Shown here: positions 4,665-6,712 of the stretch, piece by piece | Layout of the letters: each line of letters starts with the position of its first letter | Numbering within the stretch: the stretch's first letter is position 1 | IMG/VR virus record: IMGVR_UViG_3300043803_001772 | Origin: a virus | Lineage: Duplodnaviria > Heunggongvirae > Uroviricota > Caudoviricetes | DNA: 18,119 nt | Strand: one strand, 5' to 3' | Made by a program: the position numbers and the translations under genes | Notes under the pieces: generated by a model | Databases searched by the model: none | Told to the model about the DNA's origin: nothing | What the model saw: the letters and a program-made list of their open reading frames with translations, nothing else

Positions 4665-4737
4665 TGGAGCGGGTCCGAACTTTGCATTTCGCCTTTTAGT
4701 CTGGTAGACTAACGTGCTCTCTTTACACCTGACCCGC
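4665..4737 (-). tRNA. atypical tRNA-Gly-like, anticodon ACC
   Basis: perfect GCGGGTC/GACCCGC acceptor, U73, CCA; perfect TTAGT/ACTAA anticodon stem, loop CTACCAG; D-loop AAAGAGA lacks GG; T-loop TGCAAA. Confidence 0.7.
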
Positions 4738-4752
4738 ATTTAAATTCAAATA

Positions 4753-5040
4753 GGAAGGACTAATGATTACCTCCAAGTTTCAGAATCACGACTGGTTATT
4801 CATCCACAATCCACACGGGTAATTACTCCTTGTGTTAATGACTGATGGGATTTTGTTTTCCCCACAACGGGCTACGATTTATCATATATTTTAGCTACGG
4901 TCCCGTTACGCTCAAATTTGGGGTTGAACGACCTCAAATTCTCCATAGACTTACCCTCCATGATTCCTACTCCAACCAATATACAACGTTTTTCAACGCC
5001 ATATATTGTGCGTTACAACTAAACTAATCGTTGTTCCGCC
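4753..5040 (-). ncRNA. unassigned ~290-nt structured RNA (element X)
   Basis: 14-bp GAAA-capped hairpin with 3 G.U pairs (4977-5008); 9-bp long-range helix 4959-4967/4782-4790; further hairpins; imperfect 5'/3' end pairing; lies between two tRNAs just after a boxA-like site. Confidence 0.6.
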
Positions 5041-5051
5041 ACTATCTTAAA

Positions 5052-5064
5052 TTGTTAAAGAACT
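5052..5064 (-). promoter_or_regulatory. boxA-like antitermination site
   Basis: AGTTCTTTAACAA versus E. coli rrn boxA TGCTCTTTAACA; identical copies at 6408-6420 and 7214-7226. Confidence 0.6.
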
Positions 5065-5073
5065 ATTGAAAAA

Positions 5074-5351
5074 TGGTAGGCGTGAGTGGATTCGAACCAC
5101 CGCTTTACAGATTTTCGTACCACTATAATTTTCATTACACATTTCTGTTTTGTGGTCTGGACTTTCTCTTCATCATAACATTTCTGTTTTAGATGTTTGC
5201 CGTTAAGTCTCTACACCTTCTCATTTCTGAGCTTGGCTCGGGATTGGCAGTTAAGCTTTCCCCGAATTTGACAAATTCTACTTTAGAGATTTCTCTCTAA
5301 GCACTCAATTTACGCTAAAGTCTGTTGACTCTTCCGCTGGTCTACACGCCC
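5074..5351 (-). tRNA. tRNA-Leu(UAA) interrupted by a group I intron; short variable loop
   Basis: exons 5351-5318 and 5115-5074 join to give stem ACAGA/TCTGT with loop CTT|AAAA; acceptor GGGCGTG/CACGCCT-A-CCA; canonical T-loop. Confidence 0.88.
5116..5317 (-). mobile_element. group I self-splicing intron, 202 nt, IC3-like, no ORF
   Basis: 5' exon ends in U with ACTT/GAGT P1; P AATTCGGGGAAA, Q AATCCCGAGCC, R GTGTAGAGACT, S GAAAGTCC; P3 TTTGTC/GGCAAA; terminal G; several GAAA tetraloops. Confidence 0.9.
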
Positions 5352-5362
5352 ATTTAAATTAC

Positions 5363-5374
5363 TTACAAAGAACT
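5363..5374 (-). promoter_or_regulatory. boxA-like site
   Basis: AGTTCTTTGTAA between the promoter and the Leu(UAA) tRNA. Confidence 0.5.
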
Positions 5375-5392
5375 ATTACTTACTACTCTTTC

Positions 5393-5420
5393 ATCTTACC
5401 ACATCTTACTTACTTGTCAA
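5393..5420 (-). promoter_or_regulatory. sigma70-like promoter of the tRNA island
   Basis: TTGACA-N16-TAAGAT with TGTGG before the -10. Confidence 0.75.
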
Positions 5421-5438
5421 ACAAGTTTTTCAGAAAAA

Positions 5439-5515
5439 TGGTAGCTAGGGTCAGATTCGAACTGACACTGGACACTTTTTGAGAGTGCTGCCTCCTGCCG
5501 TTGGGCTACCTAGCC
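5439..5515 (-). tRNA. tRNA-Leu(CAA), short variable loop
   Basis: GGCTAGG/CCTAGCT-A-CCA, loop CTCAAAA, TTCGAAT T-loop, 5-nt variable region. Confidence 0.9.
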
Positions 5516-6172
5516 ATTTAAAATTTTTGATTCAATCAACTTATAAAGTCTACTATAATTTCTTCCGTTTTCAATTCCTAAATTTTTTAAAGTTTGATTA
5601 ATATTTCCCTTACATTTATGATACATATCAATCAATTCATTGTCATCTACTTTTTTAGTAGAAGTAAATTTTATATTTTTTGCGCAAAAAGTATCTGTTT
5701 GACTATGACAATTTGGACATAAAAATCTCAAGTTTTCTAATCTTTGGTCTGTTGATATACCATTTATATGGTCTAATTGTAAATTTAATTTTTTATTATT
5801 CCAAAATCCCAAATTAGAACATAATGTACATTTATACTCAATTAAATTTTTTTTCTTTATTAGATTTCTAATGTATGATTTTGAAAATTTACTATTCTCT
5901 ATAAAGATTTCATTTTTATTTCTTTCAGATAATCTATCATCATCCAATAAAGTTTTACCTTTGCTCCATAACATACCTGTAAAATGTGAAATATCAATAT
6001 TAAGATTTGATATTTCTTTTTTTATTCTAGAGTGGGTTGAACCACTATATGGTATACCAAGTCTTTTAATTACTTGGGTATAAGATAAAGATTTTTTTGT
6101 AGCATCTATCAAATCAGACTCAGTATAAATTTGTTTTTTCCTCATACTAATAAATAGTATATTGGAAGACAT
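5510..6172 (-). CDS. free-standing HNH endonuclease
   Basis: LQLDHINGISTDQRLENLRFLCPNCHSQT motif with CxxC pairs; the stop codon overlaps the first bases of tRNA-Leu(CAA); the true start may be the second Met (6145). Confidence 0.9.
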   Translation of the reverse strand: MSSNILFISMRKKQIYTESDLIDATKKSLSYTQVIKRLGIPYSGSTHSRIKKEISNLNIDISHFTGMLWSKGKTLLDDDRLSERNKNEIFIENSKFSKSYIRNLIKKKNLIEYKCTLCSNLGFWNNKKLNLQLDHINGISTDQRLENLRFLCPNCHSQTDTFCAKNIKFTSTKKVDDNELIDMYHKCKGNINQTLKNLGIENGRNYSRLYKLIESKILNG

Positions 6173-6201
6173 AAATACAAATTATTTTGTGTCTGCTAAA
6201 A

Positions 6202-6213
6202 TTTCAATGAACT
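6202..6213 (-). promoter_or_regulatory. boxA-like site (variant)
   Basis: AGTTCATTGAAA directly after the Ile(UAU) tRNA. Confidence 0.4.
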
Positions 6214-6221
6214 ATTAAAAA

Positions 6222-6315
6222 TGGTGGTTCCGCCCGGATTCGAACCGAGACCGTGCTCAAATCTAGAGCTTATCAACGTTATAAGCGTTGCGTTCTACCG
6301 TTAAACTACGGAACC
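6222..6315 (-). tRNA. tRNA-Ile(UAU) with a long variable arm
   Basis: GGTTCCG/CGGAACC-A-CCA, stem CAACG/CGTTG, loop CTTATAA, 24-nt variable region with a GCTC-TAGATTT-GAGC hairpin. Confidence 0.85.
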
Positions 6316-6321
6316 ACTAAA

Positions 6322-6400
6322 TGGTAGCGGGGACAGGATTTGAACCTGTGACCTCCTGGTTATGAGCCAAGCGAGCTGATCCGGGCTGCTCCACCCCGCA
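6322..6400 (-). tRNA. initiator tRNA-fMet (CAT)
   Basis: TGCGGGG/CCCCGCT with a 1:72 mismatch, A11:U24, overall close to bacterial fMet; the 29:41 pair is U-A rather than G-C. Confidence 0.9.
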
Positions 6401-6407
6401 AATTGTT

Positions 6408-6420
6408 TTGTTAAAGAACT
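6408..6420 (-). promoter_or_regulatory. boxA-like site
   Basis: AGTTCTTTAACAA between the promoter and tRNA-fMet. Confidence 0.6.
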
Positions 6421-6431
6421 AACTAAAAATT

Positions 6432-6459
6432 ATCTTATCACACATTGATGTTTTGTCAA
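6432..6459 (-). promoter_or_regulatory. sigma70-like promoter
   Basis: TTGACA-N16-TAAGAT with TGTGTGA before the -10. Confidence 0.75.
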
Positions 6460-6472
6460 CATCTAAAATCGT

Positions 6473-6552
6473 CGCCGGTCTTTTAATTGGCGCTTTAATC
6501 CTCTGGTGGGGAACCAACTCAAGTGTCCTATTAATCGGGTATTCTCCGGGCG
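6473..6552 (-). ncRNA. possible small structured RNA (element Z)
   Basis: 80 nt closed by CGCCCGG/CCGGCG, internal TGGT-TCCCC-ACCA hairpin, directly after a tRNA-like gene. Confidence 0.3.
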
Positions 6553-6556
6553 TAAA

Positions 6557-6628
6557 TGGTTGGAACGGTGGGTGCTGCCCCCACTTAAACTGGCTTATGA
6601 AACCTGTTTCTTTGCTGAAAGCGCTCCA
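6557..6628 (-). tRNA. atypical tRNA-like gene, anticodon CAT
   Basis: TGGAGCG/CGTTCCA-A-CCA, loop TTCATAA, perfect GTGGG/CCCAC T-stem but T-loop GGCAGCA; D-loop lacks GG. Confidence 0.65.
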
Positions 6629-6635
6629 ATTAAAA

Positions 6636-6712
6636 TGGTTGCTGAAGCGTAGGAATCGCACCTACTTAATGAGTGGTTATGAGCCACCCCCAGATCTAAC
6701 CTGCCGCCAGCT
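6636..6712 (-). tRNA. atypical initiator-like tRNA, anticodon CAT
   Basis: A1xA72 mismatch, A11:U24, loop CTCATAA, perfect GTAGG/CCTAC T-stem with loop TGCGATT, 2-nt bulge in the 3' acceptor strand, CCA. Confidence 0.65.

Follow-up and report, generated by a model that had tools for sequence, protein, structure and literature searches.

In the standard account of tRNA, G18 and U55 form a tertiary contact that is nearly universal. Two described tRNAs depart from it. tRNA-Pyl, which has a CUA anticodon and its own synthetase, carries G55 and A56 and lacks the 19-56 pair, G18G19 and T54-Ψ55-C56, while keeping U54-A58 (PMC1851642). The staphylococcal non-proteinogenic tRNA-Gly, which feeds cell-wall synthesis, has U18U19 or C18U19 and the anticodon UCC (PMC4574755). 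Phage tRNAs that escape host defences are also known, namely T5 tRNA-Lys against PARIS and T5 tRNA-Tyr against retron PtuAB (PMC11464382, PMC11555353, PMC10264068, PMC12409363). In FMN and cobalamin riboswitches, T-loops follow the consensus UGNRA, as opposed to the tRNA form UUCRA; an adenosine supplied by the partner loop is inserted between positions 4 and 5 and contacts the sugar edge of the position-2 G through two hydrogen bonds. The same study reports the motif for further structured RNAs and mentions the ribosomal RNA (rRNA) T-loop GGAAG (bioRxiv 10.1101/2022.12.26.521914). Here we analysed an 18,119-nucleotide (nt) stretch of viral DNA (Caudoviricetes; IMG/VR record IMGVR_UViG_3300043803_001772), hereafter the window, which contains three tRNA-like genes, A, B and C, whose elbows would pair A18 with G55 and keep G19-C56. 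Their features are:

4737-4665, minus strand: gene A, 73 nt, glycine identity set, anticodon ACC
4719-4720, minus strand: A18-G19 of gene A, in the D-loop AAAG-AG-A (AAAGAGA, 4724-4718)
4686-4681, minus strand: T-loop core of gene A, U54 G55 C56 A57 A58 A59
6628-6557, minus strand: gene B, 72 nt, anticodon CAU
6617-6614, minus strand: D tetraloop of gene B, C17 A18 G19 C20 (CAGC)
6584-6568, minus strand: T-arm of gene B, GUGGG-GGCAGCA-CCCAC
6579-6573, minus strand: T-loop of gene B, G54 G55 C56 A57 G58 C59 A60
6712-6636, minus strand: gene C, 77 nt, initiator-like, anticodon CAU
6698-6696, minus strand: D triloop of gene C, U17 A18 G19
6660-6654, minus strand: T-loop of gene C, U54 G55 C56 G57 A58 U59 U60

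A preliminary description of this DNA had claimed that three tRNA-like genes share one rebuilt elbow, with G55-C56 in the T-loop and AG but no GG in the D-loop. All three genes do read this way, A-G occupying the place of G18-G19. The elbows are not identical, however, since positions 54/58 are U/A in A and C and G/G in B; the canonical G18-G19 and U54-U55-C56 thus appear as AG/UGC in A and C and as AG/GGC in B. Standard 7/4/5/5-base-pair (bp) stems, a 2-nt 8/9 linker and nucleotide 26 do not occur together in any of them (A has a 4-bp T-stem). In each, the 7-nt anticodon loop contains U33 and has a purine at position 37 (CUACCAG in A, UUCAUAA in B, CUCAUAA in C), and the discriminator is followed by CCA (U-CCA in A, A-CCA in B and C). 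An A-G within a loop of 3-7 nt is by itself not beyond chance, and the significance of the elbow comes from covariation within gene families, a covariance model and a class-wide association between positions 18 and 55. From these sequence comparisons, we consider it probable that A, B and C are genuine tRNA-type genes kept by selection in an uncultured freshwater phage; that A is a glycine-type tRNA by its identity set and anticodon, and B and C are CAU tRNAs of methionine, initiator or Ile2 type; and that the three belong to a large, mostly viral tRNA class in which A18·G55 compensates for the lost contact and G19-C56 is kept.

The preliminary description had further proposed a coordinated swap of G18·U55 for A18·G55, to be examined by aligning homologues and looking for 18/55 covariation. 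We carried out this examination as a census, using a cloverleaf scanner for class-I tRNAs that considers stem pairing only and ignores loop sequence (≤1 mismatch, ≤4 G-U pairs, 4-5-nt variable region). It yielded 298 unique class-I tRNAs from 74 sequences, comprising the window and 73 phage loci fetched through G55 T-arm words. A looser scan, admitting 2 mismatches and long variable arms, was rejected after returning many false matches in AT-rich coding DNA. Among tRNAs with U55, positions 18-19 were GG in 186 and AG in 6; among those with G55, they were AG in 80 and GG in none. The association has a Fisher p of about 1e-62 with kinship ignored, which is not a true probability, as these tRNAs are paralogues and homologues from loci found via G55 words. 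The covariation test was thus positive, and together with the shared register and the retention of C56 (83 of 87 G55 tRNAs) it supports the swap.

Thirty anticodons and 26 loci are represented in the G55/AG class. Twenty-one loci hold tRNAs of both elbow classes, and in 16 of these the two are perfectly partitioned. A-G stands in the same register as G-G, with 3-4 bases before and 2-3 after it. Other tRNA hallmarks are common in the G55 class (U33 in 79, R37 in 83, CCA in 78 and G53-C61 in 86 of 87). Positions 54/58 are U-A in 29, A-U in 19 and G-G in 29 of the 80 G55/AG tRNAs and are never mixed, a rule that A (U-A), B (G-G) and C (U-A) follow. C17 accompanies C59 in 23 of 28 cases and A17 accompanies U59, which is partly ascertainment, as one search word fixed GGCAGCA. 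All listed tRNAs with the GGCAGCA T-loop have a CAG-Y D-loop, and the CAGC of gene B fits this class motif. B-type sequences alone, pairing CAGC with GGCAGCA, would fit an alternative G18-C56 plus C19-G55 arrangement equally well; we disfavour it, since the A-G register is common to the UGC and AGC subclasses. Our literature search returned no description of an A18/G55 elbow in phage tRNAs, and a paper on cyanobacterial tRNA operons makes no mention of elbows.

The distribution of one T-arm suggests that the class is mainly viral. About 30 other phage tRNAs, whose anticodons are many and include CUA, have the same 17-nt T-arm as gene B. Across 185,579 prokaryote species genomes, by comparison, the same word was found at 34 places, of which the scanner called three as tRNAs and two more were tRNA-like; the remaining matches are chance occurrences in GC-rich genes. 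As a separate observation, GGCAGCA/CAG tRNAs with the anticodon CUA are present in loci L043, L022/L038, L018 and L105 and are candidate amber suppressors; for one CUA tRNA with this T-loop, the contig was binned into a metagenome-assembled genome of an uncultured Mollicutes.

Relatives were retrieved from IMG/VR with two kinds of query, the virion protein encoded nearby and short words taken from A, B and C, which gave related phage contigs or loci (L001, L004, L005, L013, L047, L058 and others). A, B and C are identical in the window and L001, whose Arg, Lys and Glu tRNA genes differ from those of the window at about one third of positions, and in related contigs they recur unchanged or nearly so beside differing neighbours. 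For gene A, seven distinct variants cover 20 helix pairs with 100% of cells paired and double changes at 4 pairs (for example, G4-C and G5-C of the acceptor become A-U and A-U). The T-loop core of A is invariant across these variants, which were fetched through that very word. More diverged homologues set the A-G register: the D-loop is CAUG-AG-GA in L004 and AACU-AG-A in L047, which also has a regular 5-bp T-arm with UGCGAUU. Both homologues occupy the same genomic place as A; in that of L004, the anticodon stem is wholly replaced and the loop CUACCAG is kept.

Gene B is identical in every close relative; when its architecture was searched for by regular expression, eight distinct sequences of 72 nt were recovered. 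Over 24 pairs, 93.8% of cells in this family are paired, against 37-47% when the partner is slid, with double changes at 19 of the 24 pairs and an invariant CAG in the D-loops. The gene C family comprises six sequences (five close variants and the distant L013), with 22 pairs, 100% of cells paired and double changes at 7 pairs, among them acceptor pairs 5-68 and 6-67 and the pair that opens the D-stem. L013 has the D-loop AAG at the place of the C triloop, so that A-G is kept. The T-arm of C recurs in other phage tRNAs with GG-less D-loops (AGUAGUA in L063).

These families bear directly on whether the three genes are decaying tRNA pseudogenes whose loops drifted independently. Standard finders fail on all of them, and each breaks a canonical rule. 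ARAGORN missed A, B and C at both the default and the 80% (-ps80) thresholds; with the Rfam tRNA model (RF00005), neither A nor B appeared at a cut-off as loose as E ≤ 10, and C drew only a non-significant tRNA-Sec match in the Rfam scan (17.3 bits, E 7), leaving all three below the RF00005 gathering threshold of 29 bits. Decay is contradicted by helices that are 94-100% paired with many double compensatory changes, as well as by the identity of these genes across contigs whose canonical tRNA genes differ by about one third. The same loop changes also recur as a covarying set in 80 other tRNAs. We therefore regard decay as highly improbable, as the preliminary description had suggested in arguing against independent decay.

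Single-sequence folding was weak (C not significant, with z -0.4; A and B modest; A mis-drawn), which made family covariation necessary. The structure-only scan recovered gene B with one mismatch. We also built a covariance model, R1, from 85 class members (alignment A2), none of them from the window. It scored B at 29.3, A at 26.4 and C at 17.3 bits (E 0.001 for C), with the best unrelated match at 9 bits; as R1 also scores canonical tRNAs highly, these values measure a tRNA likeness tolerant of the elbow and not elbow specificity.

Gene A begins and ends with G1-C72, C2-G71, G3-C70, U73 and an encoded CCA. Its D-stem is GUGU/GCAC, and its T-arm places CGAA/UUCG around A-UGCAAA-G. With C35 and C36 of the anticodon, it contains the full set G1-C72, C2-G71, G3-C70, U73, C35 and C36, the glycine identity set known for Escherichia coli. 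Its anticodon ACC is an exact match to GGU, which at 133 of 229 is the glycine codon used most in the open reading frames (ORFs) of the window, GGA being second. Relatives carry a second Gly-like gene of the UCC type directly after A:

L005:1020-1092, L058:3767-3836, L074:9334-9403 and L015:6690-6761, in relatives: second Gly-like gene with the alternative elbow, after gene A

This second gene has the D-loop CAUGAGGA and the T-loop UGCAAGU. Its anticodon region forms a 6-nt loop, N-U-U-C-C-A, closed by C-G, or an 8-nt loop if that pair opens.

Genes B and C depart further from the standard body. In B, a 7-bp acceptor (U1-A72) runs directly into a 4-bp D-stem with no 8/9 linker; the anticodon stem has 8 bp with one A-A mismatch, and a 2-nt variable region, A73 and CCA complete the gene. 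This predicted architecture was not matched in any description that we met. In C, positions 1 and 72 are mismatched (A1×A72) and the 3' acceptor strand has a bulge of 2 nt; a GG linker leads to a 5-bp D-stem with A11:U24, followed by a 6-bp anticodon stem, a 5-nt variable region and the T-arm GUAGG-UGCGAUU-CCUAC, and the gene ends in A73 and CCA. U8, A14, R15 and A21 are all lacking in both genes, and of their D-loops only N-A-G(-N) is left, the nucleotides expected to contact the T-loop.

Bacterial initiator tRNA is characterized by a 1×72 mismatch, A11:U24 and three G:C pairs at 29-31/39-41. Gene C shows the first two features and, at 29-31/39-41, two G:C pairs plus U29-A41, a pattern shared with a canonical gene of the island of tRNA genes in which A, B and C lie:

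6400-6322, minus strand: canonical initiator-like tRNA, island gene

The anticodon arm letters of C, UGGCUCAUAACCA, are common to this gene, and by sequence we take C to be an initiator-like paralogue of it.

The same likeness also feeds the main rival to a decoding role, which applies especially to B and C. According to this rival, B, C and perhaps A are tRNA mimics, serving as decoys or sponges that offer host tRNA-targeting nucleases or further tRNA-binding factors an intact anticodon stem-loop and CCA, and their remodelled bodies avoid EF-Tu and the ribosome. B and C indeed combine the most strongly altered bodies with the anticodon arms closest to canonical: they have unusual stem lengths and have lost U8, A14, R15 and A21, and C combines a conserved acceptor bulge with the UGGCUCAUAACCA arm, A11:U24 and 1×72 mismatch of the initiator-like tRNA. 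There are four CAU genes in the window, and phage tRNAs are known to counter tRNA-cutting defences (PMC11464382, PMC11555353, PMC10264068). Yet the regular members of the elbow class, which have ordinary cloverleaves and CCA ends, include 30 anticodons and so resemble a decoding set; the anticodon of A fits codon usage in the window; the acceptor and T stems are constrained as strongly as the anticodon arm; and no candidate presents itself for the nuclease target in the host. On balance, we think decoys unlikely and consider A, B and C most likely to be working phage tRNAs.

RNA evidence came from four river and lake metatranscriptome runs mapped on 4400-7800. Metatranscriptome contigs cover the tRNA island and leave the flanking protein genes uncovered. 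Gene A has a depth of 12-44, and an RNA contig (4665-4766) stops exactly at its CCA. For B and C, the depth is 0-17, not clearly above that of an HNH endonuclease gene, and we did not count it as evidence either way. Back-running joints (4737->4665, 5051->4748 and 7369->7284) may be reverse-transcriptase template switches at RNA ends, circles or assembly artefacts and were not relied on.

A non-coding RNA of about 304 nt (4748-5051, minus strand) lies between an intron-bearing tRNA and gene A. Its word depth is about 400-17,000 per bin in the four metatranscriptomes, compared with none for flanking protein genes, and a 296-nt RNA contig spans 4756-5051. It is conserved at 78-99% in more than 10 contigs, with compensatory changes at 14 of 80 predicted pairs; an internal ATG frame is not conserved, and Rfam gave only weak manA-like matches.

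Gene A begins 10 nt past the 3' end (4748) of this abundant RNA, whose depth attains 2,000-17,000 in the four metatranscriptomes; one RNA contig spans the 3' part of the RNA, the spacer and A and stops at the CCA, and the order of 300-nt RNA then Gly-like tRNA is kept in L001, L004, L005, L047 and L058. The elements could accordingly be RNase P/RNase Z punctuation that frees neighbouring RNAs, A setting the 3' end of the ~300-nt RNA. Punctuation needs only the acceptor/T domain, yet conservation, with compensatory changes, extends to the anticodon stems and to the ACC and CAU loops, and the neighbours of B and C are tRNA-type genes and not RNAs of another kind. We consider punctuation very unlikely as the explanation of the three genes; a processing role would in any case be compatible with decoding.

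Several observations weigh against A, B and C being working tRNAs with a rebuilt elbow, beyond the kinship of the census tRNAs given above. The T-arm of A is irregular, with a 4-bp stem, A53 opposite G61 and one loop base fewer, where B and C have a 7-nt T-loop closed by G53-C61. C32 and G38 of A could pair, leaving a 5-nt anticodon loop, and to our knowledge glycine anticodons with A34 are nearly absent from cells. In B, the missing 8/9 linker and the 8-bp anticodon stem may give an anticodon-to-CCA geometry that differs from that of a working tRNA; in C, the 1×72 mismatch is accompanied by a 2-nt bulge that is conserved in the acceptor. We propose the A18-G55 contact from covariation and analogy. 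For charging and ribosomal use, which we infer, the codon match and the RNA contigs offer indirect support; decoding is likely in our view.

The structural model that we propose builds on the riboswitch module. A (UGCAA) and C (UGCGA) fit UGNRA, and the GGCAG of B resembles the rRNA loop GGAAG. By analogy with the UGNRA-adenosine module, A18 would stack into the T-loop and bond G55, so that the inner contact G18·U55 would be replaced by A18·G55 and the outer G19-C56 retained; the L-shape would be rebuilt, not lost. Longer D or anticodon stems may offset the lost core layers in B and C. G19-C56 is the flat face on which RNase P, the L1 stalk and T-boxes stack (PMC4810234, PMC3664808). As this face is kept, reading by these three may be little affected, and its use by such readers would explain why only the inner contact was free to change. 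A, B and C would also be excised by RNase P, charged and used on the ribosome.

By definition, TruB and TrmH lose their target base in all three genes, and TrmA also in B; by sequence, neither Ψ55 nor Gm18 is possible in A, B or C, nor m5U54 in B. The swap may bring a benefit by denying U55, G18 and, in B, U54 to TruB, TrmH, TrmA and nucleases directed at the T- or D-loop, whether these enzymes use the bases as targets or for recognition. Enzymes directed at these loops are known: CdiA-CT E479 cuts the T-loop at T-Ψ (PMC9086364), and AriB of PARIS makes base-specific D-loop contacts that T5 tRNA-Lys avoids by differing there (PMC12409363). By analogy, escape from T- or D-loop-directed enzymes is a plausible benefit. 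It is possible, though we put it forward only tentatively, that the whole is a counter-defence design in which RNase P, synthetases and ribosomes accept these tRNAs and loop-directed nucleases and U55/G18/U54-dependent enzymes cannot, B and C being new working Met/initiator architectures.

The window is AT-rich and phage-like (G+C about 32%), with ORFs that include a virion protein, an HNH endonuclease and sugar-nucleotide enzymes. The virion protein shares about 33% identity with proteins from aquatic phages, cyanophages among them, and lake-water metagenome runs contain the window stretch. A megablast of 4400-7800 against 50,697 deposited phages gave as its sole match a 65-nt canonical tRNA-Met, so that the region has no annotated relative among them. 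The tRNA island occupies the minus strand from 7570 to 4578. ARAGORN and Rfam jointly called seven tRNAs in it, and Rfam indicates an eighth that is interrupted by a group I intron. CCA ends are encoded in all island tRNAs; A, B and C are interspersed among them with the same AU-rich spacers and encoded N-CCA ends. The island tRNAs besides A fit top or heavily used A/U-rich codons (AAA, GAA, AGA, AUA, UUA and UUG). Two further entries are:

Island, called by ARAGORN and Rfam in agreement: Arg-UCU, Lys-UUU, Glu-UUC, initiator-like CAU, Ile-UAU, class-I CAA and CAU
5510-6172, minus strand: free-standing HNH endonuclease gene

Several island genes are unusual in their own right. The Ile-UAU tRNA (6222-6315, minus strand) carries a 24-nt extra arm with a stem-loop, is otherwise canonical and is identical in L001; AUA, which it fits, is heavily used in the window (109 codons). 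In the UAA class-I tRNA (5078-5346, minus strand), the group I intron (Rfam match of 74.8 bits at 5135-5327) splits the gene after U34, and L004 and L005 have at this place an unrelated, intron-less class-II tRNA-Leu(UAA) of 88 nt. A class-I tRNA with the leucine anticodon CAA and a short variable arm abuts the free-standing HNH gene (together 5439-6172, minus strand), where L001 has a class-II tRNA-Leu(CAA) of 84 nt and no HNH gene. Between the window (7047-7570) and L001 (14363-14886), the Arg-UCU, Lys-UUU and Glu-UUC genes differ at about one third of positions, mostly by compensated stem changes; spacers, promoter-like boxes and alternative-elbow genes are 98-100% identical. Judged by sequence, the divergence looks like cassette exchange or diversifying selection on those three tRNAs.

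A perfect 13-bp inverted repeat, UUCUUUGUUCUUU / AAAGAACAAAGAA, encloses an 86-nt GC-richer element (7284-7369, minus strand). L001 has this element in identical form. RNA contigs cover it, and one of them joins 7369 back to 7284; folded with its repeat, the element has z = -3.1, and model R1 gave it no tRNA-type score. Four similar promoter-like units precede RNA gene groups on the minus strand, at about 5350-5425, 6405-6460, 7215-7270 and 7385-7440, each consisting of TTGACA, a 17-nt spacer, TAAGAT and then a shared AGUUCUUUAAC-type box.

If the proposed reading holds, it has several implications. The detectors run here (ARAGORN and Rfam) miss such genes, and phage tRNA repertoires, CUA members included, would therefore be under-counted. 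CUA members of the class could serve as stop-codon suppressors, and the alternative-elbow design may give orthogonal scaffolds for genetic code engineering. Should the swap protect against host enzymes, it would point to elbow-directed defences not yet described. B and C would stretch the limits of the tRNA-shaped form that RNA can take under selection.

Compared with known systems, A, B and C resemble canonical tRNA (RF00005) in their four-arm cloverleaf, 7-nt anticodon loop with U33 and R37, G19-C56, and discriminator with CCA, in the 5-bp T-stem of B and C closed by G53-C61, and in their place in a phage tRNA island with AU-rich spacers. They differ in having A18 and G55 instead of G18 and U55, and B in its 2-nt variable region. 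With the riboswitch T-loop module they share the loop sequences set out above, and an A18-G55 contact would mirror its adenosine-G2 bond; that module was described outside tRNA (bioRxiv 10.1101/2022.12.26.521914), whereas here it would lie inside tRNAs, with the contact proposed from covariation. Bacterial initiator tRNA and C have in common the 1×72 mismatch, A11:U24, G30-C40 and G31-C39, and C has the same anticodon arm as the island gene; C differs in its A-A mismatch, two of three G:C pairs, bulged acceptor and D triloop. tRNA-Pyl tends to a compact core, as B and C do: its D-loop is small, its linker and variable region are short and its anticodon stem is lengthened. In contrast to tRNA-Pyl, B and C keep G19-C56 and read CAU, and B goes further, with a 0-nt linker and an 8-bp stem; neither the CUA anticodon nor the A56 of tRNA-Pyl recurs in the three genes, which have CAU or ACC and C56. 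The staphylococcal tRNA-Gly likewise combines glycine identity with loss of the G18G19/U55C56 signature and an atypical anticodon loop, but A has A18-G19, G55-C56 and the anticodon ACC, and no Fem-type transferase was seen in the window. Defence-escaping phage tRNAs differ from host tRNAs at nuclease-read positions, including the D-loop (U16 to C in T5 tRNA-Lys); in those cases the anticodon arm or single D-loop bases are changed and the elbow pair is not rebuilt. tRNA-Pyl and the staphylococcal tRNA-Gly are thus the nearest described, and neither has a compensated A18-G55 with G19-C56. Such a compensated pair in phage tRNAs of most anticodons would give the elbow a second natural solution, the one used by riboswitches.

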